This document shows, in pieces, positions 434 through 13,840 of a stretch of 13,840 nucleotides of DNA. How positions within the stretch are numbered: the stretch's first letter is position 1; each line of letters begins with the position of its first letter. The notes under the pieces were generated by a model. That model was not told where the DNA came from. It did no database searches and worked only from the letters and a program-made list of their open reading frames with translations. The stretch lies in UHGV virus genome UHGV-0179107. One strand, 5' to 3'. Origin of the DNA: a virus. The position numbers and the translations under genes are program-made.

Positions 434-670
434 TTATACCTCGCCTTGTCTTAAAGATTTTGATAATGAAATAGCCCTTTTCAGGGCCTCTTTATCAATA
501 TTATATTTCTCTGCCAGCTCTTCGATTGAGAGGCCTTCTGTGTGGGATCCACTTTTAATAATGGTGGACCCCTCTTTCGCTGACTCTGGCAGGTGACATA
601 CTGTCACCCCTTCGGGCGTGTCTTCGGAGTCCTTAACCAGTTTTTGATAAATCTTTTCGTAGGTATTCAT
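434..670 (-). CDS. Small protein (78 aa) with a probable helix-turn-helix near the C-terminus
   Basis: ORF track; ATG 670-668 sits 1 nt after the TGA of the upstream gene (translational coupling). The segment LSIEELAEKYNIDKEALKRAI looks HTH-like by eye. Function not recognised. Confidence 0.55.
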   Translation of the reverse strand: MNTYEKIYQKLVKDSEDTPEGVTVCHLPESAKEGSTIIKSGSHTEGLSIEELAEKYNIDKEALKRAISLSKSLRQGEV

Positions 671-2174: not shown

Positions 2175-2287
2175 GATTAATTCTCCGAACGTTTAAAAGA
2201 TCAGGGCAATCAATCTAGTTCTAGTTCTATATGTAATTAGTTTATTTAGTTTATTTGGGATAACAGGGGAGGAGTAATAATCAAAAA

Positions 2288-2446
2288 TTAATAATCTTCA
2301 TCATAATCATCGTCAAATGTTCTTAACTCTGCAATATAACCGTCTTTCGCGGTATGCTCATAATATTCTTGAGTCTGTTTATCATAAGCCAAATCATCAA
2401 GATATTCTTTGCTAACAACCATATCGGTTAAATCTAAAGTTATCAT
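2288..2446 (-). CDS. Small acidic protein (52 aa), below the ORF-track length cutoff
   Basis: Hand translation: MITLDLTDMVVSKEYLDDLAYDKQTQEYYEHTAKDGYIAELRTFDDDYDEDY, with AAGGA about 8 nt upstream of ATG 2446-2444. It fills the gap between the 305-aa and 162-aa genes on the same strand. Confidence 0.35.
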   Translation of the reverse strand: MITLDLTDMVVSKEYLDDLAYDKQTQEYYEHTAKDGYIAELRTFDDDYDEDY

Positions 2447-2479
2447 AAGAGTTTTCCTTAATTAACTGAAAGGTAAAAA

Positions 2480-3397
2480 TTATTTATCAAGTAAAACCAT
2501 CTTGCCCTCTCTTAAGCGGCAATTTTGCCATGCTGGGAAGGGGTTCAATAAATCTCCGGGATTGGCTTCAGTGTCCACAATAATTTCTATCCCTTCGTTT
2601 TCTTTTAATAGATTTGCTAGACGAAAGGCTTGATCAGTAAGATGCCAATATTTAGCAGAATTCATTATTTTGCCATCAATGGTGCCTTTAATATTTTTCA
2701 TCACCTCATAGCCATAGATTTCATCACGCAATACGCTAAGTTTTACCCTTCCTTTACCTTTATATTTAGCTTTAGCTGCCAGATATGCCGCCTTTGCTTC
2801 AGAATTCGTCAGAACTGGATAACCGTAAAAATCTTTCTCACGTTTGCCAGCGTCTCTACGGCGTTCTCTGCGTTCTTTTTTAGGTTGGGAAGGGGATTGC
2901 ATTGCCTCGGGCTTTTCAGGCTGCTGTGCGGCTTGTTTTGGGGCTTCCTGAGGCTGTTCTACTTTAGCGGCAGTCTTTCCGAAAGTCTCTAAGATGCCTT
3001 CTGGAATATTTACGCCCTTCTCGATGCACATATCCAACAATTGATCAGGGGTTTTCAGCAATTCGTAATGATTAGATTTGCCTTTTTTAACAATTGAAAT
3101 AAGCCCAGCATTTTCAAGAGATTTAATAGCGCTGGCTATTTTCCCGCGATCCTTTCTGAGTTGAGTTGCCAGTTTTTGCTCTGAAATATAAATTCCCTCA
3201 CCGTTAAAATGAAAGCCCACCATTTTTCCATAAATTAACATTTCAAAGTCTGTTAAATAAAAGCGCTCTTTAACTGTTCCCGTCTTTTTATTAGAGATTG
3301 TTGTTGCTACCGGTTTATCAAAATCATACTGAATAAAGAAATCGAAAGAGGGGGTAAAAGGTGCCCCCAGTCTATTTCCTGCCATAATTTCCCCCAT
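2480..3397 (-). CDS. Putative iteron-binding replication initiator / replisome organiser (305 aa): N-terminal winged-helix domain, Q/P/E/K-rich linker, C-terminal domain
   Basis: ORF track. The N-terminal domain (KERFYLTDFEMLIYGKMVGFHF...ISEQKLATQL...AIKSLENAGLISIVKKGKSNHYEL) has the winged-helix layout of lambda-O / phage replisome-organiser type proteins, followed by a basic low-complexity linker (KKERRERRRDAGKREKD). ATG 3397 overlaps the TAA of the upstream paralog; an alternative start at 3385 gives matching MA-N N-termini in both paralogs. Confidence 0.65.
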   Translation of the reverse strand: MGEIMAGNRLGAPFTPSFDFFIQYDFDKPVATTISNKKTGTVKERFYLTDFEMLIYGKMVGFHFNGEGIYISEQKLATQLRKDRGKIASAIKSLENAGLISIVKKGKSNHYELLKTPDQLLDMCIEKGVNIPEGILETFGKTAAKVEQPQEAPKQAAQQPEKPEAMQSPSQPKKERRERRRDAGKREKDFYGYPVLTNSEAKAAYLAAKAKYKGKGRVKLSVLRDEIYGYEVMKNIKGTIDGKIMNSAKYWHLTDQAFRLANLLKENEGIEIIVDTEANPGDLLNPFPAWQNCRLREGKMVLLDK

Positions 3398-3783
3398 TAA
3401 TATATAAAATATTCTCTAATACCCTGCTCATCGCACATCTTGCCAAGCTGATCAGGGGTAATTAGCAATTCGTAGATATTCGATTTGCCCTGTTCTCGTT
3501 TAACGTTTATCAGACCTGCAGCTTCTAATGTTTTGATTGCCGACCTTACTGTTTTCTCTGTAACATCATAATCGTCTGCTAATGTCTGCGTCGAAAGCTC
3601 TGAGATAATTATTTCTTCACCCTCCTTAAAAGAATAACTTACCATTTCACCATAAATTGTTACCTCCAACAAATTTAAGTGAAATCTTTCTTTATTGGTT
3701 GCAGTTTTTGCAATCGGATTTTTAAAAGTGTATTTGATGAAACGTTTAAAAATGGGAGTAAAATTTTCATCGTTGTTTGCCAT
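3397..3783 (-). CDS. Truncated paralog of the adjacent initiator (about 128 aa): winged-helix DNA-binding domain only
   Basis: Clear paralogy with the N-terminus of the 305-aa protein (NFTPIFKRFIKYTF vs PFTPSFDFFIQYDF; GKSNIYELLITPDQLGKMCDEQG vs GKSNHYELLKTPDQLLDMCIEKG). The track start at 3798 is a TTG that overlaps the SD; ATG 3783-3781 with GGAGG 8 nt upstream is the likely start. Confidence 0.65.
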   Translation of the reverse strand: MANNDENFTPIFKRFIKYTFKNPIAKTATNKERFHLNLLEVTIYGEMVSYSFKEGEEIIISELSTQTLADDYDVTEKTVRSAIKTLEAAGLINVKREQGKSNIYELLITPDQLGKMCDEQGIREYFIY

Positions 3784-3807
3784 AATATGATCCTCCAAGA
3801 TTATTTA

Positions 3808-4017: not shown

Positions 4018-4138
4018 AATGAGGCCTCCTATAATTCGAATCAGAATGATATACGGTTAAAAAGAAACGGGAACTAATAGCTCCCGCCAGTTAATTAAGG
4101 AAATCCACTATGATGACTTAGTGTATCCCTATGCTTTA

Positions 4139-4170
4139 TATTTTATCAGACATTCGTCAAATTGTCAACA
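4139..4170 (-). promoter_or_regulatory. Candidate sigma70 promoter for the leftward operon (-35 TTGACA, 17-nt spacer, -10 TAAAAT)
   Basis: Minus-strand reading: TGTTGACAATTTGAcgaatgtctgaTAAAAT. The first 14 nt are identical to the -35 region of the capsid promoter at 8017-8030, and the spacers are similar. About 115 nt of leader would precede ATG 4017. Confidence 0.4.
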
Positions 4171-4340
4171 ATCTTTTTGTATTTATCTATCATTTTTTCT
4201 TCAAGATTGTCGATTGCAGTCACTCCGGCTATGTAGGCAACACCGCACCACAGTACAGCCAGGTTGATGATCGCTATTGCATCAGTAATTTCCACATTGA
4301 CCTCCGGATCTGTTTCTCCCCCTATTTATAATCTTATCAT

Positions 4341-4489
4341 ATTGTCAACCAATTGTCAATGAGAATTATTATCATTTAGGTGTGCTATAGGTACAAGCAA
4401 GTCCACAGCAAAGGGGTAAGCATTATTAATGGCCCCTACCGTGTCAAAACCAAAATCACTTATAGCATTTATTCAATAAGATTGTCAAT
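4341..4489 (-). promoter_or_regulatory. Three further ATTGTCAA(C/T) sites (4341-4349, 4352-4360, 4481-4489), each a TTGACA hexamer on the minus strand
   Basis: Seen directly. With the site at 4161-4169 this makes four same-orientation copies in about 330 bp. Possible -10 elements are weak (TAAGAT, TATAAG), so these may be operators or secondary promoters. Confidence 0.35.
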
Positions 4490-4801
4490 GGCCCACAACA
4501 TGCCTTCCTGCAGAAGGTTTGATTTTAATCAAATCCACGAAGTGGACCACAGGAGGGAGAGCACTTTTTGCCTTAGGCGCTCTAAAATCAATTCTAACGC
4601 GATTTAGAGGTCAGGTAATGCAATTGCACTACTCACCACAGTTAATGCAGCCAGAAGGCCATTTAGGGGCCCTATTTTTGATTTATGAGTGTCATATTAC
4701 GTGCATGCACGCGCGGGAGACTCTTTGCTGCCTCCTTCCGGCGCTGGCAAGCTTTCGGCAGCGGTCCACATTGTGGGCCTCATGCTGACGCATTCGCCGG
4801 A

Positions 4802-4963
4802 CCCACACAGACCCGAAGGGCTTAGCCATGGGCTAAGGTGCCGTAGGCACTCCCACACACAATTGGGTGACGTGTCATGTATGGAATACATTGTCACCCC
4901 ACACACAGGCCGACGTAGTCGGTTTAGCTGTATAGCTAAAGTCACAAAGTGACCCACACACAG
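4802..4963 (+). repeat. Array of about 50-bp units, each beginning with CCCACACACAG and containing different short perfect palindromes
   Basis: Punctuation motif at 4802, 4852, 4898 and 4954. Palindromes: CTTAGCC-ATG-GGCTAAG (4821-4837), GTGCC-GTA-GGCAC (4838-4850), GGGTGAC...GTCACCC (4865-4899), CCGAC-GTA-GTCGG (4910-4922), TTAGCT-GTAT-AGCTAA (4924-4939), GTCAC-AAA-GTGAC (4941-4953). Confidence 0.6.
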
Positions 4964-4966
4964 ATT

Positions 4967-5003
4967 GCCTAAAGAGTCGCTCATGCTCTTTAGGCTTTCA
5001 TTT
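4967..5003 (+). terminator. Candidate intrinsic terminator closing the hairpin array
   Basis: Perfect 10-bp stem GCCTAAAGAG / CTCTTTAGGC (4967-4976 and 4986-4995) with a 9-nt loop, followed by TTTCATTT. The minus-strand side has no U-tract. Confidence 0.4.
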
Positions 5004-5124
5004 GTGGGTTAAGCTTTTCCCTTAGAAAACCTTCCCCACTCTCTGATCCCTCCCCATCCCCCCTTGTTGGGGGATTATAGGGGGAGTTCTTTTTATTGAT
5101 CTATTCTCTTTATCTATTAGTGTG

Positions 5125-5270
5125 GGAAATCCCAGCATATATATGTAGGAAATTCCCGCATATATATGTTGGAAATACCAGCATATCCCTTTCTGTGTAT
5201 GGTTGAATATGCGGGAAATTCCAGCATATCGATCCCTATGCATGTGGGAACATGTGGGAAATACCGACAG
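5125..5270. repeat. Iteron array, candidate replication origin: GGAAAT-N-CC-(A/C)-GCATAT repeats
   Basis: Four 16-bp copies at 5125-5140, 5148-5163, 5171-5186 and 5214-5229. The first three are spaced exactly 23 bp (about two helical turns), the fourth is 43 bp further. Degenerate copies follow (tandem CATGTGGGAA x2 at 5241-5260; GGAAATACCGACAG at 5257-5270; GGAAATATGCAGATC at 5403-5417). Confidence 0.55.
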
Positions 5271-6332
5271 GTCTGTGTGGCTTAATTTGACTTGATATTG
5301 ACTAACAAAGGCCTTCGTAGAAGGTTTGAGATGAGCTCAAATCACCATATGTGACTAACAAACCTCTCTCCTCTCTCTTTGCTTTGATTTTCTCTCATGT
5401 GTGGGAAATATGCAGATCAACACCCTTTGATTTTATCGACAGGTATGTTGACACGCCCTACGGTTGTGAGGCCCGGGCATCATAAGTATGGCCCCTGGGG
5501 CAGTCCATCCTTCCCTCACACAGGACAATGAATACACTCCTTGCAGTCATGAATACATAAAGAACATGAAAGACTGTTCACACCAACACGCCGATAAATT
5601 GCCTGAAGAGGCTTACATGGTGGGATTGTTGTGTGGGTAATAGTGATCATGCTAACAGATTATGTTAATCAGATGTAAATTCCGATTTTGTGGTCTGCAG
5701 ATAGCAAACTATACTGGTTAGATGATCAGGGGAATGACTACAAAACAATCAAAAATGTGGGATATAGACATCTATACTTCTAATGTGCTGTGTGGGGTGT
5801 TAGTGCGTCCTAACCTCTAAGTCATTGATTTTAAGTGTTGGGAGAGATGCATTTAACATAATAGATCTTATCTACACTAATAAAGCGCACTACAAAATCT
5901 GATTTAAAAATCATGATAAGGAGGCCCAGAATTTACGTACAGTCACCTGAATAAATAATGTGCACAACATACAGCAAAGCTTAAGAATTAACATAATAGC
6001 AACGTGGTCAGTAGTGGTGTGATATTTGAGAATTGTTAGAAGAAAAAAGGGAGGTGGGGGAGCGCCTGCCTGGCACCTCAGACGAACATCTGACGGGTAT
6101 TAATACCGCTAATGGATATTTCTGACACCCACACCCAAGACCGCTTTCAGCACATAGCCATACACCGCACAGGATGCAATTGTGATAACAAAAAATGGGG
6201 GTGTAATAGGGTAGGCTGTCTTTCATCAAAATCACTTCTACGACGTTACCAGAGTGATAACAAGAAAACAGGCCTCTAAGATTATCTGTGCCTCGTTTTT
6301 AGCTTTTTGTGTGGTTACCAGGTGAAGAGGAA

Positions 6333-6497
6333 ATGTTAAAAACTGTTCATTTTATGCACAAACTAGTCAGGGTGATACCACAAAATGAGGCGCAAGAAAT
6401 CCAGCTGCAGATAATCTTGCAGCCAGATTTTGCAGTTTTTGAGGGTATGTTAAATTTGACAAAAATAGAGAAAAGGCTTATTAAGATAACTTATTGA
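6333..6497 (+). CDS. Possible small ORF (54 aa from ATG 6333), weak
   Basis: ORF track 6309..6497 starts at a GTG; the internal ATG 6333 has GGTGA about 7 nt upstream. It is the only moderately plausible ORF in the 2.7-kb gap, with no recognisable family. Could be non-coding. Confidence 0.2.
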   Translation: MLKTVHFMHKLVRVIPQNEAQEIQLQIILQPDFAVFEGMLNLTKIEKRLIKITY

Positions 6498-6571
6498 TTT
6501 TATTAGTATTATGAAAAAGGGTTACACCCTCTCTCTTACTCTGTCAACCGGGCGGTTGTGGCATAAAACGG

Positions 6572-6697
6572 ATTAAATCAATAAATAGGCATTAAATACC
6601 CATTAAATACCCCTTAAATAGGGGTTAATTGCTCAGGACTGAAAGGAGTGTAAATAGGGGATAAATAGGGGTTAATTGAGGGATAAATAAAAAGGGG
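6572..6697. repeat. AT-rich direct-repeat cluster: TAAATAGGGGTTAATTG x2 plus shorter TAAATAGG and ATTAAAT copies
   Basis: 17-mer at 6615-6631 and 6662-6678 (47 bp apart); TAAATAGGGG at 6651-6660; TAAATAGG at 6582-6589; ATTAAAT at 6572, 6591 and 6603. Lies just beyond the terminator of the membrane-protein operon. Confidence 0.55.
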
Positions 6698-6710
6698 CCG
6701 TGATGGCCCC
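6681..6710 (-). terminator. Rho-independent terminator of the leftward HTH / membrane-protein operon
   Basis: Minus strand: GGGGCC-AUCAC-GGCCCC (plus 6694-6710) followed by UUUUUAUUUAU, starting 8 nt after the TGA at 6721-6719. Confidence 0.7.
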
Positions 6711-6718
6711 CTGGTAGG

Positions 6719-7237
6719 TCAGAACAGTTTTTTGCTTTTTCTCCAACTAACGCCGCGTTTGCCTATGCTCAGCCAGCCGCCAGCGAATCGGGTACCTGCG
6801 GTAACACTAGCTCCCCTGGTGCCTACATGTGCATAAATACCTGCCCCACTGCTACCACCGCTTCTACGGCTTTTTCCGCCATCGATATCGAGGAGAGCAC
6901 AGATTGCACCCCACAAAAAGCCAACCAACCAATATACATATGCTAAGCCTAAAACACCCCAGGTTACCGCCCACCCCTCTAGACTAGTGGGGAAGTAGAA
7001 AGCATTGAGAACAGCATTTATAGGACGGATCAGGAGAGAATCTATAAAACCAATATCCACATGAAACGGGCCATCACCGAACTTGCTACTGCCAATAAAC
7101 AAGGTAGCAGGGTAAAAACAGATAGCCATTAACCAAGGCCCGGCTATCAAAAACGCTGCAGTGTACTGAAAGAACATTTTTACCAGTTCTTTAAAAAGCC
7201 TTTTATTTACTGATTCTTTGTCTTTCTGGAATAACAT
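6719..7237 (-). CDS. Membrane protein (172 aa) with two predicted transmembrane helices and a Gly/Ser/Arg-rich C-terminal tail
   Basis: ORF track. Hydrophobic segments FFQYTAAFLIAGPWLMAICFYPATLFI and WAVTWGVLGLAYVYWLVGFLWGAICALL; tail GKSRRSGGSSGAGIYAHVGTRGAS...SWRKSKK. A purine-rich SD-like stretch precedes ATG 7237. No family recognised. Confidence 0.65.
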   Translation of the reverse strand: MLFQKDKESVNKRLFKELVKMFFQYTAAFLIAGPWLMAICFYPATLFIGSSKFGDGPFHVDIGFIDSLLIRPINAVLNAFYFPTSLEGWAVTWGVLGLAYVYWLVGFLWGAICALLDIDGGKSRRSGGSSGAGIYAHVGTRGASVTAGTRFAGGWLSIGKRGVSWRKSKKLF

Positions 7238-7294: not shown

Positions 7295-7555
7295 TTACTT
7301 AGCTTTCTTGAATCTCCCGTCCTCCTTTCTTTCGATATTGTGGTAGTCGGCATAGGCTTTCAGCCTTCTGTGCACGGTGGCTATCCCCACACCGAAGGTT
7401 TTAGCAATAACCTGTCGTGGTGTTCCCTCCTCGACCATCTTAAACATCTGTGCCGCTACATCCATTTGTGCGGCTATCTCCATTTGCTTTGCCTTTGCTT
7501 TAACTTCAGCTATCAGCTCTTCCCTCAGTCTCCTGATATCTTTAGCCCCCGTCAT
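7295..7555 (-). CDS. Small DNA-binding protein (86 aa): N-terminal coiled coil, C-terminal resolvase/Hin-type HTH
   Basis: ORF track. The segment TPRQVIAKTFGVGIATVHRRLKAY fits the resolvase-type HTH pattern (IA...GV...TV.R.L). GAGGAG precedes ATG 7555-7553. Confidence 0.6.
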   Translation of the reverse strand: MTGAKDIRRLREELIAEVKAKAKQMEIAAQMDVAAQMFKMVEEGTPRQVIAKTFGVGIATVHRRLKAYADYHNIERKEDGRFKKAK

Positions 7556-7779: not shown

Positions 7780-8016
7780 ATCTATAACCTTTTGCGAGAA
7801 GTTGATTTGTTTGCTCGGTTGGGTGCTATCAATGCTCCCCTTCCTTGATTCGAACTATAGCCGGGTAAATCCCCGGAAAACATTGATATTGATCAAAAGA
7901 TATCTATCACGAATGAAAAAGTTATGATAGATGCTATGAGATGACGTATTGATGGGATTGATAGAGGTCTGAAAATACCGTTACCACGCTAATTATTAGA
8001 ATTTATATAATCAGGG

Positions 8017-8047
8017 TGTTGACAATTTGAGAGAATACTGATATAAT
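8017..8047 (+). promoter_or_regulatory. Consensus sigma70 promoter upstream of the capsid genes
   Basis: TTGACA (8019-8024), 17-nt spacer, TATAAT (8042-8047), with an AT-rich UP-like tract upstream (7985-8015). The 14-mer TGTTGACAATTTGA (8017-8030) is identical to the reverse complement of 4157-4170. Confidence 0.6.
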
Positions 8048-8190
8048 ATACATATACACCGTAAATCTTTGGTGAAAGTGATTTGCCGTATTTTCCTCCA
8101 AAGTAAAGGCGACCAGGTAGCGGTGCCGCCTTATAAATAACACTACCCTGATCATCGTTGAGTGGTCGATTAATTCTCCTATTGGGCTAG

Positions 8191-8199
8191 TTATCCACA
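8191..8199 (+). promoter_or_regulatory. Perfect DnaA-box consensus TTATCCACA in the capsid leader
   Basis: Exact 9-mer seen directly. It overlaps the left arm of an 8-bp inverted repeat CCACACAG / CTGTGTGG (8195-8202 and 8221-8228). Only one copy, so a chance match is possible. Confidence 0.3.
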
Positions 8200-8366
8200 C
8201 AGTTTTCTTTTGCGGGTTTTCTGTGTGGGTAGCTATCCCGAAAGGTATTTCCCCGCTGATGTGACCGCAGCCTGAACTGATTCGGGGGAGTGCCTTTCGT
8301 GATAGTGCTCTCAAGCAACCGTAACCATGTGCTATCAGCCAACTTTGTTGGTTTTCCTCATGTGGA

Positions 8367-8396
8367 ATAGCCCCCGCTTGGACGGTGCGGGGCTAT
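8367..8396 (+). terminator. Terminator-like or attenuator hairpin in the capsid leader
   Basis: ATAGCCCC(C)GC / GCGGGGCTAT stem with one bulged C and a 9-nt loop, followed by a pyrimidine-rich but imperfect U-tract (CTCCCTCTTCTTAT). Lies between the promoter and the first capsid-module gene. Confidence 0.3.
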
Positions 8397-8525
8397 CTCC
8401 CTCTTCTTATATCAATCTCCCTTTTAATAGATTTCCGGCATAACTTTTCGGCCCGAGCCTGTCGTAGTTCTAGAGGTTATGCCGGAACTCTTTGAGGGGA
8501 GTTAATTTAAATCGCAGGTGATCAA

Positions 8526-8861
8526 ATGAGAGATATGACTATCCGCACACGCGGACACATCATTTCATACGCCGCAGATGAGCAATTCTCTATTCGTGAC
8601 GTGGAAGTGAAAAATAAAGTTAAGGCTGAGATCCCGGCCGGCACTGTTGTTGTGGTGACTGAGGCTGGCGAGGTTGAGACCTTCGTTAAAGCAACGCACA
8701 CCGGTAAAACTCCGCTGCTGGTTGTAGAACGTGCTGAGGTTGGTGATGCTTTTATCGTTGTTGCCAACAAAGGCTGTTATATCAATCCGGCCTACGTGGA
8801 TAAAGACGGCTTAGCCGCTGTTATCGCTGCCAGCAATGGCGATCTGCGTGTTGCACAATAA
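8526..8861 (+). CDS. Putative head decoration or accessory capsid protein (111 aa), immediately upstream of the major capsid gene
   Basis: ORF track; AGGTG 5 nt upstream of ATG 8526. Codon usage looks typical of highly expressed genes. Position and size parallel lambda D relative to E, but no direct sequence similarity was recognised, so the product call is positional. Confidence 0.55.
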   Translation: MRDMTIRTRGHIISYAADEQFSIRDVEVKNKVKAEIPAGTVVVVTEAGEVETFVKATHTGKTPLLVVERAEVGDAFIVVANKGCYINPAYVDKDGLAAVIAASNGDLRVAQ

Positions 8862-8872
8862 GGAGGTTGAAG

Positions 8873-9919
8873 ATGGCTAAAAAAGAATTCGAAGTTCGCG
8901 ATCTGTGTGGTCTGATTAAAGACATCCCGCTGGATAACCAGATTATTTCAGCAATGGATATCTTTAACACTACTGCTCTGTGCAATACCTTTAAATTTGA
9001 ATATGACAAAGTCCGCCAGGTGAAACAAACCGCTTTCGGTCAGTATCCGCGCTACGGTGAACAGATGGCGACCATTACCGCAGATGAGCGTGAAACGGGC
9101 ACGGGTGATATGGCATTCACTGCCGCATCCAGTGCTATTTATCCTTCTGACTGGCAGGGTATTCGTGTTCCGGGCAAAGATTCCGAAGAGAATTTAGAGT
9201 CTGTTACCGCTCGGCGTGTTATTCAGTTGGGTGAAGGCTTACGCCAGACCCATGAAGAAGCACGCCAGCTTGCTCTCTTTGAGAACAAAATTATCCTCAC
9301 CAAGGGTAAAGAACTGAATGTGTGCGAACTGCTGGGCGCACAGCAAACCACCTCGGAAGTGGATTTAGCTAAAGATATCCTTAAACAGCTGCAGGACCTG
9401 GTTGCACTGAGCAAGATTAAACAGCGTGGTGTCGTTCGCGCTCTTCGTGGTTTCACCCTGTTCTGCCGTGCTGAGCTCTTTGCTGCAATTCAGACTGATG
9501 AACTGTTGAGAAAAGTGCTGTTGTTCGGCAATCAGAATATTACCGACAAAGGTCTGATGTTCCCTGAGGATATTCTGCCGGGCTTCCCGACCTTCCGCAT
9601 TCCGGGCTTAGCCCTGCGTGTGGTGCAAATGGATAGTCTGCCAGAGAATACTGCTTATCTGGTCCCACAATTCCAGCCACATGCGTTAGGCGATATGGTG
9701 GGCGTTTATACTCAATTTTTCGGCCCTTGCGCTCGCAACTTGAAGCTTGCAAACGGCGCTGCACGTGAAGCTTTCATGTATATGGAAGAGTCCAGAGGTA
9801 AACGAGAAATCTTCATTGAATCCTCTTATGCTTTCATGAACATGATGCCTGAGGTTGTGGTTAAAGTGAGTGTTAGTAACTCCGCCGCCGCTGCTCTGGC
9901 AAAAGCCAAGGCTAAATAA
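8873..9919 (+). CDS. Major capsid protein, lambda gpE-like family (348 aa from ATG 8873)
   Basis: Track start 8867 is a TTG; ATG 8873 has a perfect AGGAGG 6 nt upstream. Size and the C-terminal LPENTAYLVP segment parallel lambda gpE (341 aa; LPDNTMVLG), recalled from memory. Confidence 0.8.
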   Translation: MAKKEFEVRDLCGLIKDIPLDNQIISAMDIFNTTALCNTFKFEYDKVRQVKQTAFGQYPRYGEQMATITADERETGTGDMAFTAASSAIYPSDWQGIRVPGKDSEENLESVTARRVIQLGEGLRQTHEEARQLALFENKIILTKGKELNVCELLGAQQTTSEVDLAKDILKQLQDLVALSKIKQRGVVRALRGFTLFCRAELFAAIQTDELLRKVLLFGNQNITDKGLMFPEDILPGFPTFRIPGLALRVVQMDSLPENTAYLVPQFQPHALGDMVGVYTQFFGPCARNLKLANGAAREAFMYMEESRGKREIFIESSYAFMNMMPEVVVKVSVSNSAAAALAKAKAK

Positions 9920-9950
9920 GGTCCTTCTTCGAAGGCCAAATAAAAGCAAA

Positions 9951-9999
9951 GGGAAGAGGTGAGAGATCGGGGATAGGTCTTTCCCTCTTCCCTTTTTTT
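9951..9999 (+). terminator. Strong rho-independent terminator after the major capsid gene
   Basis: GGGAAGAGG (9951-9959) pairs with CCTCTTCCC (9984-9992), followed by TTTTTTT (9993-9999). A small CCTTC-TTC-GAAGG hairpin (9923-9935) sits just after the stop codon. Confidence 0.7.
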
Positions 10000-10033
10000 A
10001 TTATCCCCGTCTTAAGTTTTTGAGGTGTCTTTT

Positions 10034-10285
10034 ATGAAAATTGTTTTATACGGCGACCGTGACGACGTGCCTTTTGATATTATCCATATCGATGACGAGG
10101 ATCTGCCGGAATTCCTGCGTATCTCCACATTTGCCGCCTGCTATGACGTTAGCCGCCAGGCTATGCACAAGTACCGTGAATATAATAAATGCACCTGGGC
10201 CGAGACTTTCGAACATTTTATTGCACGCAAACAAACCCAGGACCGCAAAAAAGCCCTGAATGCGCATAATCGTTTTGCAAAATAA
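10034..10285 (+). CDS. Small protein (84 aa), acidic N-terminus and a possible HTH
   Basis: Track start 10025 is a GTG; ATG 10034 has GAGGTG about 7 nt upstream. The segment LRISTFAACYDVSRQAMHKY looks HTH-like by eye. Function unknown. Confidence 0.5.
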   Translation: MKIVLYGDRDDVPFDIIHIDDEDLPEFLRISTFAACYDVSRQAMHKYREYNKCTWAETFEHFIARKQTQDRKKALNAHNRFAK

Positions 10286-10359
10286 CGATAGATAGCCCTG
10301 TCTTTTTATCAGAATTCACACAGGGCCACCAAAAGATTCAATTTGGAGGCATGTTTAAT

Positions 10360-11163
10360 ATGGCTAGTGATGCTCTGACAGCTGCAAAACAAGCTGAGTC
10401 GAGATCTCCTGCATTCACTGTTATGTGTGGGGGATATTCACAAAACAAAAATATAATGGATGGCTTCAACTATACCGATAATGTGGCTATCTTCTTTGAC
10501 TCTATCTCTGATGTCAGCTATTCGTTCCCTGTTGAGAAATCGAGCTATGCGGTCGAGGATGGCACCACCATGTCAGACCATGCCGTCATTAAAGATAAAT
10601 CTGTCAGCTTTACGGGTATTATTACCTCTTCCCCTCATATCATCCGGAAAGAGAACTACATTGACCGGAACACTGATCCAGATAATCCCCGTGAGTCTAT
10701 GCGCCCTGCTGCCGCTGTTCAGGCACTTATGGAAATGAGAGACAAGCGCCAGCTAGTCAGCCTGGTGAGTGAAGATGCCGGACTCCTTGAGAACTTCATC
10801 ATGACGAAATGTGAAGTTAAGCGTAGCTCTTCCTCTGGCGACTGCATCACTATTGATTGCACCTTTGAAGAATTCCGCACCTTCAAGGTGAAGATGGTCG
10901 AAAATGCCGGAGTCTTCACTAACAGCAAGAAGGTGAACAAAACACAGCAAAAGGGTGCTGTTAACAGTGCTAAAGAGGGTAGTAACGCTGGCAATGCTGC
11001 TACGAAATCCACCAGGGCTAAGCATCGCGGGGAATATGCACAGGGAGAGGCAGCGGGAAAGATTGCCGCAGGTGATAAGTCTGTTGTGTCGAACGAGTTC
11101 CACGAAACGATGATCGATAAGGCCAACATGTTGCTTGATGACATAACGGAGATCAATAAATGA
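10360..11163 (+). CDS. Phage morphogenesis-module protein of unknown role (267 aa), with a Lys/Ala/Gly-rich low-complexity C-terminus
   Basis: ORF track 10351..11163. GGAGG (10345-10349) is 1 nt from ATG 10351 but 10 nt from ATG 10360, so 10360 is preferred. The stop overlaps the next start (ATGA at 11160-11163). Confidence 0.55.
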   Translation: MASDALTAAKQAESRSPAFTVMCGGYSQNKNIMDGFNYTDNVAIFFDSISDVSYSFPVEKSSYAVEDGTTMSDHAVIKDKSVSFTGIITSSPHIIRKENYIDRNTDPDNPRESMRPAAAVQALMEMRDKRQLVSLVSEDAGLLENFIMTKCEVKRSSSSGDCITIDCTFEEFRTFKVKMVENAGVFTNSKKVNKTQQKGAVNSAKEGSNAGNAATKSTRAKHRGEYAQGEAAGKIAAGDKSVVSNEFHETMIDKANMLLDDITEINK

Positions 11164-11618
11164 GTCCTAAAGTCCGGTGCACCATAGACAAGCGCATGAT
11201 GGATAAGCTGCATAAAGAGCTCTCACAGATGGAAGGTGTAGCGGTTGGCTGGGATGACGGAAAGCACTATAGCGGCCTGAATTATGCCACACTGGCAGCA
11301 ATTCATTCTGAGGGGTGGGGTGATTTGCCTAAGCGCTCCTTTATGGAATCTGCACACGCTGCAATGCTCTATGAGAGCCTGAGACACACAAAAGCCCTGA
11401 TTAATGCAATCGTAAAGGGTGGAAGCTCTGAGGCCGTCAGGAAGCGAATTGGCAAGCGATACGCCGACATTTTGGAGACTATCCTGATTAGTGGGCAATT
11501 CAGCAATAACAAGGTATCCCCACAATGGGCAAGCTATAAAGGCTTCAATGATGCCATGCGCCACTATGATGATTTGATCGGTGCAATCAAATACTGGTCA
11601 AATGTGGGGAGAGGTTGA
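11160..11618 (+). CDS. Putative tail-completion / virion-morphogenesis protein (152 aa), HK97 gp10 / P2 gpS-like
   Basis: ORF track; translationally coupled to the upstream gene. The segment NYATLAAIHSEGWGDLPKRSF resembles the YA-x-IH-x-FG motif recalled for these head-tail joining families. Assignment is from memory, not a search. Confidence 0.55.
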   Translation: MSPKVRCTIDKRMMDKLHKELSQMEGVAVGWDDGKHYSGLNYATLAAIHSEGWGDLPKRSFMESAHAAMLYESLRHTKALINAIVKGGSSEAVRKRIGKRYADILETILISGQFSNNKVSPQWASYKGFNDAMRHYDDLIGAIKYWSNVGRG

Positions 11619-11959
11619 AAAAGACAATAGTGTTCTTTTGAGGCCGTAGTGATACACCACAAATCAGCCCCTTTCCACTTCTTTTTCTCGCGATTGGTCC
11701 CTTGTGAGAATCCTTTATCAGGTATGCATTGTCCCGTGCATGAGCGGTCGATAGAGCCAGCCTCTTTCCCGGACTGGTTAGGATTTAGTGCGCTGATTGA
11801 GCGCCGCTATCACTGTTAGCCTGTTTATCGTTGCCTGGTTTGTGCATCACTGCACCCCCTGGGCACCGGACCCGCCTCAAAGGTCGGATCATCACAATTG
11901 GCGGGGCGGTTTTATAGTCGCTTTAAGGTTTATAGGCCGGAGTTGACTTACCTTCCGGC

Positions 11960-12007
11960 AACCTGCTAACATTAGTCTCGCGAGAGGTTGATTTTTGTTA
12001 GCAGGTT
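11960..12007. repeat. Perfect 12-bp inverted repeat with a nested palindrome in the convergent intergenic region
   Basis: AACCTGCTAACA (11960-11971) and TGTTAGCAGGTT (11996-12007), separated by 24 nt that contain the 10-bp palindrome TCTCGCGAGA (11976-11985). Confidence 0.6.
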
Positions 12008-12036
12008 CGCCCCGCATCAAAAGGATACCGGAGAAG

Positions 12037-12067
12037 AGCCCCTTTGTTAACACTTAGGGGCTTTTTT
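12037..12067 (+). terminator. Intrinsic terminator, plus-strand orientation
   Basis: AGCCCCT (12037-12043) pairs with AGGGGCT (12056-12062) around a 12-nt loop, followed by TTTTT (12063-12067). The minus-strand side has an A-run before the stem and no U-tract after it. Confidence 0.5.
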
Positions 12068-12145
12068 CTTGCCTGGAGTTTATCCGGTTAAGCTAACTTA
12101 TTGATTTTGATCACAATATCAGTAAAGCTGCACTATCTTCCAGCA

Positions 12146-13840
12146 TTAGAAAAGCTGATTAGATTCCTGTGTGGCTTTCCAATCCAACTGATCGCTGACT
12201 TCCTTCTGGATCACCCTGGCAATTCCCCCCTCATCAATGGTTATCTCCCATTTGCCGGAGATCTCACCATGAGGCACCACATTAACCTGAGCAGGTTGAT
12301 AGCCGCCATTCTGAATAGCCGTACCCGTGCTAGGAGTAGGACGTGACGGGCTAATTGTTGGATATGGATTAAAGGAAGCTCCTTTGCTGATGTAGCTATG
12401 GTTATAGGCCCCTGGCTTGGTCATAGCATCCTGCTCATCACTGAGAAGGCCTTTAGATTTAGCCCACTCCCCGAACTGATCAGCCTTGCTTTGCATCCAT
12501 CCTCTGAACTTCTCACCTACCGTCTTAGCGCCAAGTGCGCCAGCGACACCAACACCCACACCTGCGGCACTGCCAGCGGCTAATGCTGTTGTTGGGCTTC
12601 CAGCGACTGCCCCGCCAGCACCCTTAACGAGATTGCCCAGACCTGGAATCTTGCCTATCAGAGAAATCAGTTGGGTGACAAGTGAAACAAATCCGGTTAG
12701 AGGGGAAAGCAGTGTAGTAATAACTTTCAGACCAGCTAAGCCAACCACCAGTTTTCCGATAAGCTCGCCAACCTCTGATCCGGTCATGCCGAACTCTTTA
12801 GCCTTAACCTCGATATAGCCCTTAGCGAAGCCTACCCAATACATGATCTCACGCATGGCAGCCCCGACTGCCTCACCAAACTGTTTTGCCGCGCTCCCGC
12901 TGCCGTCCATATCAGTGGTGAGGTCTTCGAAGATGGAGATTAGAGATTCAGATAAGCTAATAACGCCATCTGCAGGATCTACAACACCCATAAACTGAAT
13001 CGCCAGCTCGTTAAAGCTGTTTTTCATGCGCTGCATTGCTACTTCTGGCTGTTTCATGGATTCAGCAAAAGCTTTAGTTTCTTTTGCAGCACCCCAGATT
13101 TTCACCAGAGAAGGAAGAAGCTTGTCCAGGGTGATTTTGCCATCTTTAAGGGCTTTATCGAATTCCTGGGCATTCTTGATGATTCCGGCATCAATAGCGG
13201 CCTGTTGGAAGTCTTGTTGTGAGCCTGCAAAGGCTTCTGCCAGCTGCCCCCGCAGCTCCTCCGCCATGACTTTATTTTTTGAAGCCATTTGTTGGACCGC
13301 AACAAGCGCCCTGTTTTGTTGCTCACCAGTAGCACCCACTGAGCGGCCTTTAATAGCCATAGCCTCAAAAAGAGCCTGCTTATCAGATTCCTTCATGGTG
13401 GGGGTAGCGGCAGCAAAACGCATATAGCCGCCTTCCATCTCACGCTGATCCATCCCGTAGGTGTAGGCTGTGTTCTTGATGAAAGCCATCTGTTGGTCAG
13501 TCTTGGCTTTATCATCCTTGTTCTGGGCCATTAAACCGAAGTAGGCACTGTTGCGATCTGCAAGGCTGCTCATAGCACCACTAACAGCACGCTGAACACC
13601 CCAGCCAGCGGCAGTAAGGCCGATAGCTATCTTGCCTAAAGTGGAATTCAGTTTCCCCAGGTTGTCATGCAGCTTGGCCCCTGTGATCGCAACTTTATCC
13701 AGTCTGCTCTGGAATTTTCCGGCTTCTGCTGTTGCCATCTTCATTTCAGCTCTGAGTCGGGCCATTTTCTGATTATAGGTCTGCAGGTTGATAGCCCCTT
13801 TAGCATAATCAGCATTAACTCTCTGAATTCTGGATTGGAA
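12146..13840 (-). CDS. Tail tape measure protein, C-terminal about 564 codons; start codon lies beyond the window end
   Basis: Hand translation shows the frame is open from 13840 to the stop at 12148-12146; the track's M at 13765 is internal. Contains a TMP-core-like segment (TGEQQNRALVAVQQMASKNKVMAEELRGQLAEAF), coiled-coil N-terminal part, and a Gly/Ala-rich hydrophobic segment typical of tape measure proteins. Confidence 0.8.
   Translation of the reverse strand, partial: FQSRIQRVNADYAKGAINLQTYNQKMARLRAEMKMATAEAGKFQSRLDKVAITGAKLHDNLGKLNSTLGKIAIGLTAAGWGVQRAVSGAMSSLADRNSAYFGLMAQNKDDKAKTDQQMAFIKNTAYTYGMDQREMEGGYMRFAAATPTMKESDKQALFEAMAIKGRSVGATGEQQNRALVAVQQMASKNKVMAEELRGQLAEAFAGSQQDFQQAAIDAGIIKNAQEFDKALKDGKITLDKLLPSLVKIWGAAKETKAFAESMKQPEVAMQRMKNSFNELAIQFMGVVDPADGVISLSESLISIFEDLTTDMDGSGSAAKQFGEAVGAAMREIMYWVGFAKGYIEVKAKEFGMTGSEVGELIGKLVVGLAGLKVITTLLSPLTGFVSLVTQLISLIGKIPGLGNLVKGAGGAVAGSPTTALAAGSAAGVGVGVAGALGAKTVGEKFRGWMQSKADQFGEWAKSKGLLSDEQDAMTKPGAYNHSYISKGASFNPYPTISPSRPTPSTGTAIQNGGYQPAQVNVVPHGEISGKWEITIDEGGIARVIQKEVSDQLDWKATQESNQLF

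Follow-up and report, generated by a model that had tools for sequence, protein, structure and literature searches.

A 13.84-kb E. coli plasmid with capsid and tail genes, most likely a satellite of rV5-like myoviruses

Results

A closed circular plasmid of E. coli

Once its 119-bp terminal overlap is trimmed, contig ERZ27289023:k119_44958 is identical, up to rotation, to the window analysed here (UHGV-0179107, 13,840 nucleotides); the window thus represents an entire closed 13,840-bp circle, on which the tape measure ORF joins in frame across the window ends. The same gene set is present in approximately 18 circularly permuted contigs (13.3-14.0 kb), and close copies sharing it were found in seven of 5,426 complete E. 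coli genomes, each as a separate plasmid of 13.2-13.7 kb and none in a chromosome. PLSDB typing classifies these copies as non-mobilizable. The plasmid occurs in E. coli of human, pig, cattle and chicken, and the cluster of its major capsid protein (MCP) has 441 member sequences, with size and gene set constant across hundreds of isolates. The element was absent from IMG/VR (protein and DNA scans) and from INPHARED.

No integrase, partition, relaxase or conjugation genes were found on the circle. Family profile searches with all window ORFs gave no match to portal, terminase, protease, scaffold, sheath, tube, baseplate, fibre or lysis proteins, and neither a small terminase, a pac or cos site, nor a regulator coupling expression to helper infection was identified on the plasmid. 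Non-coding DNA, highly conserved and strongly structured, makes up approximately 30% of the element, and two divergent sigma-70 promoters with related sequences, both of which look constitutive by sequence, drive its two operons.

The rightward capsid and tail operon

The plus-strand operon encodes, in order, a 111-aa protein, the MCP, an 86-aa protein, a tail tube initiator and a tail completion protein. Its sigma-70 promoter (8019-8047) is a perfect TTGACA-17-TATAAT with an extended TG (12/12 match), and a 46-nt inverted similarity links the region 8005-8050 to that of the leftward promoter (4137-4182). An earlier note had placed the capsid genes directly behind a promoter; the promoter is indeed present, but not directly upstream, as 478 nts of structured leader (8048-8525, plus strand) separate it from the first gene at 8526. 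This leader is 93-96% conserved among 13 copies, folds with an MFE of -171.5 kcal/mol (z -5.47) and contains a terminator-like hairpin at approximately 8372-8400, a second hairpin at 8429-8491 and the longest stretch without any variation in the element (8202-8281). Among 276 paired columns, 22 vary and two compensatory pairs are seen, which is only suggestive.

The 111-aa protein (8526-8861), located just 5' of the MCP gene, is family-specific, with no match in Pfam, PHROG, NCBIfam or PDB. It is under purifying selection (dN/dS 0.086) and has homologues at the same position in loci L017 (46% identity) and L018 (23%). The label "decoration-like" given to it previously is only a positional guess from size and location: comparison with the rV5 decoration protein yielded an hhalign probability of 2.9%, and its AlphaFold model (pLDDT 41) is unusable. 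The MCP of the lambda gpE/Phage_cap_E type (8867-9919; phrog_29, 5.8e-21) likely starts at the ATG at 8873, giving 348 aa. It is 24% identical to the rV5-like MCP over its full length (dN/dS 0.09), its relatives match PF03864, and its family profile matches the solved capsid proteins phi92 gp124 (5e-25) and 9cul_G (1e-24). The next gene (10025-10285) encodes a small family-specific protein of 86 aa (83 aa as called) for which family searches returned no match; its homologue in L017 is 34% identical (dN/dS 0.16).

The two genes further downstream, which had been taken for head-completion genes, encode tail proteins. The Dit-like tail tube initiator of 270 aa (10351-11163; PF21821, 2.3e-25) is 51% identical to proteins that carry the tail tube initiator annotation in Vequintavirus and matches PDB 9cuy_K (1e-34), with a dN/dS of 0.025. 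The tail completion/Neck1 protein of 152 aa (11160-11618; phrog_222, 7.9e-29) is 43-49% identical to proteins of Vequintavirinae, among them MaxTheCat bas57_0011, and has a dN/dS of 0.011. The operon is followed by a gene-free convergent spacer (11619-12145, plus strand), a structured 3' region that ends with an intrinsic terminator-like match at 12036-12070. No other part of the element is as well conserved as this spacer (98-99%; z -5.15; invariant runs at 11937-12007 and 12009-12081), which has no match in phage DNA.

The leftward operon, replication module and variable genes

The minus-strand operon starts from a near-consensus sigma-70 promoter (4140-4168; 11/12 match) and comprises the rep genes, then family-specific ORFs and, as the last gene, the tape measure gene. 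Two winged-helix replication initiator-like genes (2480-3397, 305 aa; 3397-3798, 133 aa) match the replication initiation families phrog_270 and phrog_678 as well as HTH_36. The Rep region (2480-3798) is variable and allele-replaced, with 0-65% conservation between copies, and five plus-strand 23-nt iterons (5121-5278; repeat family D1/D4), the presumed plasmid origin, lie in a region that varies jointly with the Rep alleles.

Downstream of the rep genes lies a 162-aa protein (1686-2174) with two weak HTH-like segments (sub-threshold HTH_40, Sigma70_r4 and KorA; dN/dS 0.135), a candidate regulator or small-terminase-like protein. The adjacent 147-aa protein (1130-1573; dN/dS 0.053) is confined to the plasmid family, in which all five clusters found are located; its low-confidence AlphaFold model (pLDDT 53) is mostly helical and thus not tube-like. 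An acidic 129-aa protein without family match (672-1061; dN/dS 0.13) precedes the tape measure gene and, from its position only, is suggested to be a tail assembly chaperone. A 78-aa protein with an HTH-like C-terminus follows (434-670; weak HTH matches; dN/dS 0.26).

The tape measure gene spans the window ends. Its C-terminal 565 codons (12146-13840; phrog_5255, 3e-149; PF20155) form an ORF open to the window end, and its N-terminal 143 codons (1-432; start ATG at 432-430) are contiguous with 13840 on the circle, yielding a single ORF of 708 aa; the tape measure proteins (TMPs) of related contigs have 699-709 aa. The TMP is 26% identical to the rV5-like TMP and 70 aa shorter (708 vs 778 aa), and it matches PDB 9cuy_W (1e-20). 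A 36-nt stretch in its 5' part (1-432) matches the tmp gene of rV5-like phages at 89% identity.

The minus strand also encodes a variable membrane protein of 172 aa (6719-7237; 172-239 aa in other copies; dN/dS 0.6) and an 86-aa HTH_7 regulator (7295-7555; HTH_7, 1.2e-6). In total, six conserved ORFs of the plasmid received no assignable function from the searches.

With these corrections to promoter distance, labels and tape measure extent, the gene content reported earlier for 8526-13840 holds. As had been noted, no portal, protease, scaffold or terminase gene precedes the MCP gene, and none was found elsewhere in the window. The tape measure gene, ending at 12146, does run on the opposite strand toward the plus-strand genes, the two being convergent with a 527-nt gap. 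Because the circle is closed, there is no flanking DNA to hold portal or terminase genes, and a location of the missing genes just outside the window is ruled out.

Hairpin modules common to the plasmid and rV5-like phages

Positions 4560-5005 (plus strand) contain a modular array of small hairpins spaced by CCCACACA motifs (z -3.7), which matches no Rfam family. A 69-nt unit of this array (4704-4772) is 84% identical to intergenic sequence in 121 phage records, all but one of which are rV5-like by organism name and genome size, and in an alignment reading a 6-bp stem of the array shows three compensatory pair changes relative to rV5. The ORF at 434-670 holds another module, of about 50 nts with three hairpins (573-623), that is also present in rV5-like phages. 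The identity of the two modules to intergenic DNA of these phages (82-88%) suggests DNA exchange between the plasmid and rV5-like phages.

Relationship to the rV5-like lineage and selection

The four recognisable virion proteins (tube initiator, Neck1, TMP and MCP) are all homologous to proteins of rV5-like phages (Vequintavirus), such as MaxTheCat/Bas57 and rV5, with which the plasmid also shares the hairpin modules. For each of MCP, tube initiator and TMP, matching chains are present both in a single solved myovirus virion deposit (9cul/9cuy) and in phi92. The phages, however, have genomes of 135-138 kb and a single collinear module (TerL-portal-protease-scaffold-decoration-MCP-neck-sheath-tube-chaperones-TMP-initiator-baseplate), whereas the plasmid keeps four of these genes in two convergent operons.

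All four structural genes are under purifying selection (dN/dS 0.01-0.19), and the ORFs are intact in 11-13 of 13 copies, with no pseudogenes. Relatives of the MCP with 42% and 30% identity are encoded in the same operon, 110aa-MCP-small ORF-Dit_like(-152aa). A further relative at 26% identity is accompanied by a TMP homologue of 709 aa and by a protein similar to the N-terminal part of the rV5 scaffold, in an island of about 10 kb (48% GC) that adjoins an integrase inside a chromosome of 61% GC. Retention of the operon in distant relatives suggests that the layout is an evolved design. A mosaic element was one of three readings offered earlier; a decaying mosaic is not what we observe, since all genes are intact and show purifying selection, and since the operon persists in relatives with as little as 30% MCP identity.

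Discussion

A probable satellite-plasmid

It is most likely that this autonomous E. coli plasmid is a helper-dependent satellite of rV5-like virulent myoviruses, because it has only four recognisable virion genes and all of them are rV5-related. The actual helper need not be rV5 and could be a relative of it that has yet to be sequenced. Of the three readings in the earlier note, a satellite encoding only part of the virion is the best supported by sequence comparison, in combination with a plasmid lifestyle, which is indicated by the iterons and Rep genes and by the lack of an integrase and of chromosomal copies. Its incomplete virion gene set means that the element does not count as a phage-plasmid in the strict sense.

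Upon helper infection, the plasmid MCP would build a capsid shell suited to the small genome; this shell would have to use the portal, scaffold, protease and terminase of the helper, with an MCP only 24% identical to that of the putative helper. The plasmid-encoded tape measure, tube initiator and tail completion proteins, which line or cap the tail lumen, may substitute for their helper counterparts, giving chimeric tails with helper baseplate, tube, sheath and fibres that would be approximately 10 nm shorter (708 vs 778 aa tape measure). The plasmid would then be packaged and transduced, which would explain how a non-mobilizable plasmid has spread across E. coli of four kinds of hosts. A packaging site may be located in the conserved structured non-coding regions, which may also put the operons under helper-dependent control. 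Several results speak against the satellite reading: the element does not occur in IMG/VR or INPHARED, neither a small terminase, a pac or cos site nor a helper-responsive regulator turned up, both promoters look constitutive, the MCP is distant from that of the putative helper, and six conserved ORFs received no function.

Three other explanations were weighed against this satellite. It seems unlikely that the plasmid is an anti-phage device that uses diverged MCP, TMP, tube initiator and tail completion proteins as dominant-negative decoys, which would co-assemble with rV5-like proteins, abort virions and protect the population without specific packaging of the plasmid itself. The homologues do point to a single group of phages, one that infects the same host, the structural genes are under strong purifying selection, the promoters look constitutive, the variable membrane-protein slot resembles cargo hotspots of defence elements, and defence by disturbing tail assembly has precedents (Tai systems, PMC11364771; Rta of PLE). 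Such poisoning, however, leaves unexplained both the spread of a non-mobilizable plasmid among unrelated hosts and the integrated, integrase-bearing relative; no PADLOC defence family was matched, and full-length MCP and TMP kept over deep divergence fit functional virion parts better. Moreover, known satellites pair interference with their own transfer, so that this explanation overlaps with the satellite and is not exclusive of it.

It is rather improbable that the plasmid is a satellite or defective element of some other myovirus with a gpE-type capsid, possibly temperate or unsequenced, and that its similarity to rV5 reflects shared ancestry only. Identity to rV5 is low for both MCP (24%) and TMP (26%), an exhaustive HMMER search recovered only 29 MCP clusters with no close phage MCP among them, and Neck1 is slightly nearer to phiTE/CR8-like phages than to rV5. 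Yet the best matches of the tube initiator are E. coli Vequintavirus proteins, the two non-coding modules match rV5-like phages specifically, and TMP and TAC of PLE are equally distant (20%) from their true helper, ICP1. A decaying phage-plasmid or prophage remnant, that is, a cryptic plasmid whose leftover structural genes have no current virion-related role, is very improbable. While an incomplete virion gene set in unusual order, the large non-coding fraction and mosaic replication genes would fit such decay, the low dN/dS of intact genes, the constancy of size and gene set, the conserved operon and the fact that the strongly structured non-coding parts are the best conserved all speak against it.

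Comparison with known satellites

The best reading, own capsid shells with chimeric tails, can be likened to PLE and its helper, phage ICP1. PLE encodes its own TMP, TAC and BhuB (20%, 20% and 41% identity to ICP1), and its chimeric tails, 10 nm shorter, have been demonstrated experimentally (PMC12987554). Like PLE, which parasitizes a large virulent myovirus of gpE-type capsid lineage, the plasmid, whose own status is predicted from sequence, has a TMP shorter than the putative helper's (by 70 aa, vs 95 aa in PLE11) and strongly diverged from it (26% vs 20%), together with a baseplate-proximal tail protein moderately similar to that of the helper (51% vs 41%). PLE differs in being integrated (large serine recombinase), in being confined to V. 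cholerae and in having no MCP of its own, instead remodelling the ICP1 coat protein via the TcaP scaffold; the autonomous E. coli plasmid has its own MCP and tail completion protein.

The phage-inducible satellite-plasmids of Vibrio crassostreae, PISP and cf-PISP (Nat Commun 2026, PMC13230959), are likewise small circular plasmids (11-16 kb) with capsid genes but a partial virion set, and their satellite status is also a sequence-based prediction. PISP carries a capsid-E type protein of PF03864, the capsid family of the plasmid MCP lineage. Both kinds, reported in Vibrio only, lack tail genes and carry a protease, a small terminase, ParA and RepA, to which cf-PISP adds portal and connectors; the E. 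coli plasmid lacks those genes but has TMP, tube initiator and tail completion protein. The cf-PICIs also make their own capsid shell and take other parts from the helper. They differ in being integrated, in having an HK97-type MCP (PF05065) rather than a gpE-type one, and in carrying a full head set (portal, protease, connectors and TerS) and stealing tails only, whereas the head set of the plasmid is reduced to the MCP and perhaps the 111-aa protein. Putative tmp genes have been noted in some cf-PICIs (Extended Data Fig. 10, PMC12987554).

A closed circular plasmid of E. coli

The open reading frame (ORF) that encodes the tape measure protein (TMP) is stop-free from its listed ATG to the end of the window, and its match in PHROG begins at profile position 256 of 800, so that the start of the gene must sit elsewhere than the listed ATG. 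Exact-protein look-ups retrieved about 18 contigs (13.3-14.0 kb) with differing start points and an identical gene order, in which a TMP gene of 699-709 aa is followed by genes of 78, 127, 147 and 162 aa and then by the rep genes; terminal overlaps of the assembler type are present in three of them. The window proved to be a base-for-base rotation of an ENA contig (ERZ27289023:k119_44958) once a 119-bp overlap was removed, and joining its end to its start produced a single unbroken TMP ORF of 708 aa. The earlier note had allowed that the missing phage genes might lie just beyond the window, which cannot hold because the window is a closed circular replicon.

Copies with 91-95% identity were detected by megablast in seven of 5,426 complete E. 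coli genomes, all of them as separate circular plasmids (13.2-13.7 kb) and none in the chromosome. The host isolates include those from human, pig, cattle and chicken, and PLSDB typing describes the plasmids as non-mobilizable. PGAP labels on public sequences include capsid, 'baseplate' and tape measure genes. No match was obtained when the whole window was compared with INPHARED phages by megablast, and no tRNA or tmRNA was found in the window. One record deposited as a single plasmid (NZ_CP043822.1, 39.6 kb; 39,610 bp) is a head-to-tail trimer in which some copies have frameshifted genes. This record is probably a long-read assembly artefact and does not speak for concatemer packaging.

The minus strand carries two winged-helix replication-initiator-like genes (133 and 305 aa), and five 23-nt iterons are located at 5121-5278. 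These features and the occurrence of a separate circular plasmid in seven complete genomes indicate that the element replicates or persists independently of a helper, with the replication function predicted from homology. Divergent alleles of the replication module (2200-3800 and 4400-5600), which comprises the paralogous winged-helix Rep-like pair and the iterons, replace one another between otherwise 95%-identical plasmids; this replacement may reflect incompatibility-driven swapping.

Gene map and virion proteins related to rV5-like phages

The gene map was obtained from the ORF listing and family searches. On the plus strand, a perfect TTGACA-17-TATAAT promoter (8019-8047) and a 478-nt leader are followed by a 111-aa ORF, the major capsid protein (MCP) gene, an 86-aa ORF, a 270-aa Dit-like gene and a 152-aa tail completion (Neck1) gene, after which a gene-free spacer of 527 nt leads to the convergent TMP gene. 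The leftward operon on the minus strand has a near-consensus promoter (4168-4140) with a 69-aa ORF first after it, a 52-aa ORF after the Rep-like genes, and family-specific ORFs of 162, 147, 129 and 78 aa ahead of the TMP gene. The map also contains a hairpin array in the middle of the element (approximately 4560-5005) and, on the minus strand, genes for a variable 172-aa membrane protein (6719-7237) and an 86-aa HTH_7 protein.

Clear homologues of four element proteins were found, all in Vequintavirinae, the rV5-like virulent E. coli myoviruses with genomes of about 136 kb. Proteins annotated as tail tube initiator share 51% identity with the 270-aa protein, which also matches a solved tube initiator (9cuy_K) at 1e-34, while the 152-aa protein has 43-49% identity to tail completion/Neck1 proteins. 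The TMP is 26% identical to a 778-aa rV5-like TMP and matches 9cuy_W at 1e-20. End-to-end alignment of the MCP with its rV5-like counterpart gives 24% identity, and the MCP family profile matches the solved capsids phi92 gp124 and 9cul_G at about 1e-24. A tblastn search of every element protein against the whole genome of the rV5-like phage MaxTheCat detected nothing beyond these four homologues.

In rV5-like phages, the genes for TerL, portal, protease, scaffold, decoration, MCP, neck, sheath, tube, two small ORFs, TMP, tube initiator and baseplate form one collinear module, whereas the plasmid has kept four of them, rearranged into two convergent operons. The opposite orientation of the TMP gene described in the earlier note was borne out, but the genes that it faces had been mislabeled as head-completion genes: those lying 3' of the MCP gene are tail genes. 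The C-terminal third of the TMP (12200-12800) is far more variable among plasmids (60-78% DNA identity) than the remaining gene, which may reflect an arms race or a fit to different helper baseplates.

Selection and distant relatives

Pairwise Nei-Gojobori comparisons over 13 copies gave dN/dS values of 0.011 for Neck1, 0.025 for the tube initiator, 0.09 for the MCP, 0.086 for the 111-aa ORF, 0.053 for the 147-aa ORF and 0.11-0.19 for the TMP. The MCP belongs to a very small family. Identity is 82% or more across all 18 word-indexed clusters; those with a named source come from E. coli, and contigs of about 13.5 kb account for most. When 1.84 billion representatives were searched exhaustively with HMMER, only 29 MCP clusters were obtained. 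The nearest outliers (42% and 30% identity) lie in the same operon as in the element, made up of a gene of about 110 aa, an MCP gene (PF03864), a small ORF and a Dit_like gene, with the 152-aa gene in one of them.

A more distant relative (26% identity) occupies an island of about 10 kb (locus L028, 6143-11346; GCA_044011355.1, DAZZAK010000015.1), which lies beside an integrase and has a GC content of 48%, against about 61% for the chromosome around it. The island encodes a gpE-type MCP and a TMP homologue of 709 aa and has an ORF of 112 aa. Also present is a protein of 114 aa that resembles the N-terminal part of the rV5 scaffold protein (PF26210), with 61% identity in its core. The lineage therefore occurs in both integrated-island and plasmid forms. 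Distant relatives were not found in the GTDB species-representative genomes using MCP or tube-initiator patterns; scans of IMG/VR detected neither the element nor distant relatives, and a JGI metagenome scan detected close copies only.

Hairpin modules common to plasmid and phage

In the gene-poor region, blastn revealed that a 69-nt unit (4704-4772) is 84-85% identical, over aligned segments of 63-69 nt, to an unannotated intergenic gap in 121 records, 120 of which are rV5-like phages by organism name and genome size. In the pairwise alignment with rV5 there are 11 mismatches; six of them fall in a 6-bp stem as three compensatory pair changes, and the 24-nt loop closed by this stem is nearly invariant. 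The surrounding region (4690-5000) consists of modular small hairpins separated by CCCACACA motifs, and units have been gained or lost among plasmid copies. In other copies a different hairpin occupies the 4704-4772 site, between flanks (GCGGGAGACT ... TCCACAT) that are the same.

Another module, about 50 nt long and containing three hairpins (CTGGCnATGCCAG, GGTGACnnnnnGTCACC and CACCCCTTCGGGTG), has 82-88% identity between the plasmids and a gene-free 2.5-kb gap of MaxTheCat (90051-92584). Its place in the plasmids is within the 78-aa ORF (window 573-623), and an extra insertion near window position ~7834 is present in five copies, namely L001 (5469-5520), L005, L006, L010 and L015; the module behaves like a small mobile unit. 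The identities of the hairpin modules far exceed those of the homologous genes, which suggests either that exchange was recent or that a strong constraint is common to both, and hence that plasmid and phage have been co-resident in one cell. Rfam searches of the window and the rV5 intergenic region found nothing at gathering thresholds and chance-level matches only at E-values up to 5-10.

A putative satellite-plasmid of rV5-like phages

The MCP, TMP, tube initiator and Neck1 are the only virion proteins that can be recognised anywhere on the circle, and the rest of the virion, packaging and lysis functions are absent. A phage-plasmid, to which one reading in the earlier note likened the layout, is not compatible with a total of 13.84 kb containing no portal, terminase, sheath, tube, baseplate or lysis genes. 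The note's suggestion of a satellite that encodes only part of the virion is the best-ranked reading. The most likely explanation is a satellite-plasmid of rV5-like phages, which we consider probable; helper dependence, packaging and the make-up of the particle are predictions, and no small terminase (TerS) or pac site was identified on the element.

Other explanations, each ranked below this one, should be weighed against the same data. The partial set of virion genes might belong to a cryptic remnant, but the low dN/dS values and the kept operon argue for functional design rather than decay, and the occurrence of the lineage as both plasmid and integrated island matches the behaviour of satellites, unlike that of phage remnants. 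The plasmid might also serve defence only, by poisoning phage assembly, or a different phage might act as the helper.

For a satellite-plasmid of rV5-like phages, the three tail genes suggest a possible mechanism. In myoviruses, tail length is set by the TMP, which occupies the lumen of the tube. Polymerisation of the tube is started by the tube initiator, located on the baseplate hub where the TMP has its C-terminal end, and the end of the tail nearest the head is finished by the tail completion protein. Given these roles, the three tail proteins of the plasmid form a lumen-lining or -capping set. Helper and plasmid tail proteins together would build chimeric tails predicted to be about 10 nm shorter, because the plasmid TMP is 70 aa shorter and each residue accounts for 1.5 Å. 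We propose more tentatively, as a possible but doubtful extension, that the element represents a family of plasmid-borne satellites, the first for a virulent myovirus of E. coli, which supplies its own capsid shell and three tail-lumen proteins and would make the transducing particle a satellite-helper chimera in head as well as tail. Its non-coding regions, which are unusually large, invariant and strongly structured and may include new RNA elements, would serve together with the hairpins exchanged with rV5-like phages as packaging and helper-sensing signals.

Comparison with known satellites

In 2026, the Seed laboratory showed that the PLE satellites of the virulent myovirus ICP1 encode a TMP, a chaperone and a baseplate hub protein of their own, with 20%, 20% and 41% identity to the ICP1 counterparts; these are incorporated to the exclusion of the ICP1 versions, giving chimeric tails shortened by 10 nm (PMC12987554). 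The pattern here is similar (TMP 26%, baseplate-proximal protein 51%, TMP 70 aa shorter). The TMP and tube initiator homologues have diverged from those of the phage to a degree like that of PLE, and a chaperone is a positional guess. PLE is inserted into the V. cholerae chromosome by a large serine recombinase, whereas the present element has no recombinase and is extrachromosomal in E. coli.

The Vibrio satellite-plasmids PISP and cf-PISP were first described in 2026 (PMC13230959). Like PISP, the element is a circular plasmid with an MCP of the PF03864 capsid-E lineage; its relatives match PF03864, while the window MCP itself is under the Pfam reporting limit and matches phrog_29 and solved gpE-type capsids. 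Unlike PISP, no head maturation protease, small terminase or ParA/RepA was detected, and tail genes (TMP, tube initiator and Neck1) are present. The cf-PICI and cf-PISP elements have an HK97 MCP (PF05065), portal, protease, connectors and TerS and no tails, whereas the present element has a PF03864-type MCP and tail genes with no portal, protease or TerS. It also differs from P4-like elements and classical PICIs, since there were no Pfam, PHROG or NCBIfam hits to integrase, AlpA, primase-replicase, Sid/Psu/Delta or Ppi/Rpp/TerS. It resembles capsid-forming satellites in having its own MCP, here of the gpE type, and Vibrio cf-PISP/PISP in its plasmid lifestyle.

A 2025 review listed just one plasmid satellite, for an inovirus (filamentous phage) (PMC12282955), and our literature search found no account of this plasmid family or of any Vequintavirus satellite. 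Phage satellites, satellite-plasmids and chimeric tails are already known; what is new is the combination of a plasmid, its own MCP with no other head genes, a tail-lumen trio, an E. coli host and a putative rV5-like helper. If the proposal is true, an E. coli plasmid satellite would join the plasmid and chimeric-tail ideas in the most tractable host, for which candidate helpers are available in the BASEL collection, and the takeover of tail-lumen proteins would not be peculiar to PLE. It would also explain how a 'non-mobilizable' class of plasmids moves between hosts, provide a minimal system of four structural genes for redirecting capsid size and tail length, and be relevant to resistance to rV5-like therapeutic phages.

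Family-specific ORFs and a possible common operator

Six conserved ORFs are without assigned function. The 111-aa protein, described as decoration-like in the earlier note, could not be tied to that function (hhalign probability 2.9%, no PDB or Pfam hits, model pLDDT 41). Assignment of the 147-aa protein as tail tube and of the 129-aa and 78-aa proteins as G/GT-type chaperones was likewise unsupported, as they have no similarity to the rV5 tube or chaperones. The predicted model of the 147-aa protein is helical and of low confidence (pLDDT 53); the C-terminus of the 78-aa protein is HTH-like, and its ORF is shifted to the +1 frame with respect to that of the 129-aa protein. PADLOC returned generic winged-helix noise only and NCBIfam nothing useful. 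A 66-aa ATG ORF (4131-4331, plus strand) has a dN/dS of 1.46 and is probably not a gene; PGAP instead calls a 49-aa ORF on the opposite strand. The slot of the 172-aa membrane protein varies from 172 to 239 aa among copies, aligns poorly and has a dN/dS of about 0.6; in this it is like the hotspots of satellites for accessory or defence genes.

An inverted similarity of 46 nt links the promoters of the two operons (4137-4182 versus 8005-8050), and ATTGTCAA motifs are repeated around 4341-4490. These similarities suggest that a single regulator, possibly the 86-aa HTH_7 protein, acts at an operator common to both.

Conserved non-coding DNA

No gene was called in any copy in about 30% of the circle, yet this is the best-conserved part of the element; about 4 kb is invariant structured non-coding DNA. 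The leader (8048-8525) between the perfect sigma-70 promoter and the capsid operon has a folding z-score of -5.5 (8055-8530 folded), and contains the longest invariant run of the element (8202-8281) as well as a hairpin near 8372-8400 that resembles a terminator. A possible function of the leader is that of an attenuator or a switch for antitermination. The spacer between the convergent operons (11619-12145) is the most conserved part of the element (98-99%), has no similarity to phage DNA, folds with a z-score of -5.15 (11619-12075) and has a terminator at its end (12036-12070); it is a candidate packaging site or source of a 3'-derived RNA.

Across the set of E. coli copies, variation is much lower in paired than in unpaired columns, and two compensatory pairs were found in each of the leader and the 3' spacer. 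The leaders and other non-coding regions of distant relatives have no detectable similarity, so that covariation can be assessed only inside this 95%-identical set, and the structure was derived from the same low-diversity alignment; the covariation is therefore suggestive only. These two regions may represent a packaging site, a leader for antitermination or new RNAs. A further region of about 1 kb (5600-6700) is 93-97% conserved and gene-free in all copies. A 24-nt segment within it (6021-6044) has a 96% match to the gene-free gap of MaxTheCat (90051-92584), and an array of 11-nt TAAATAGGGG repeats is located at 6582-6689.
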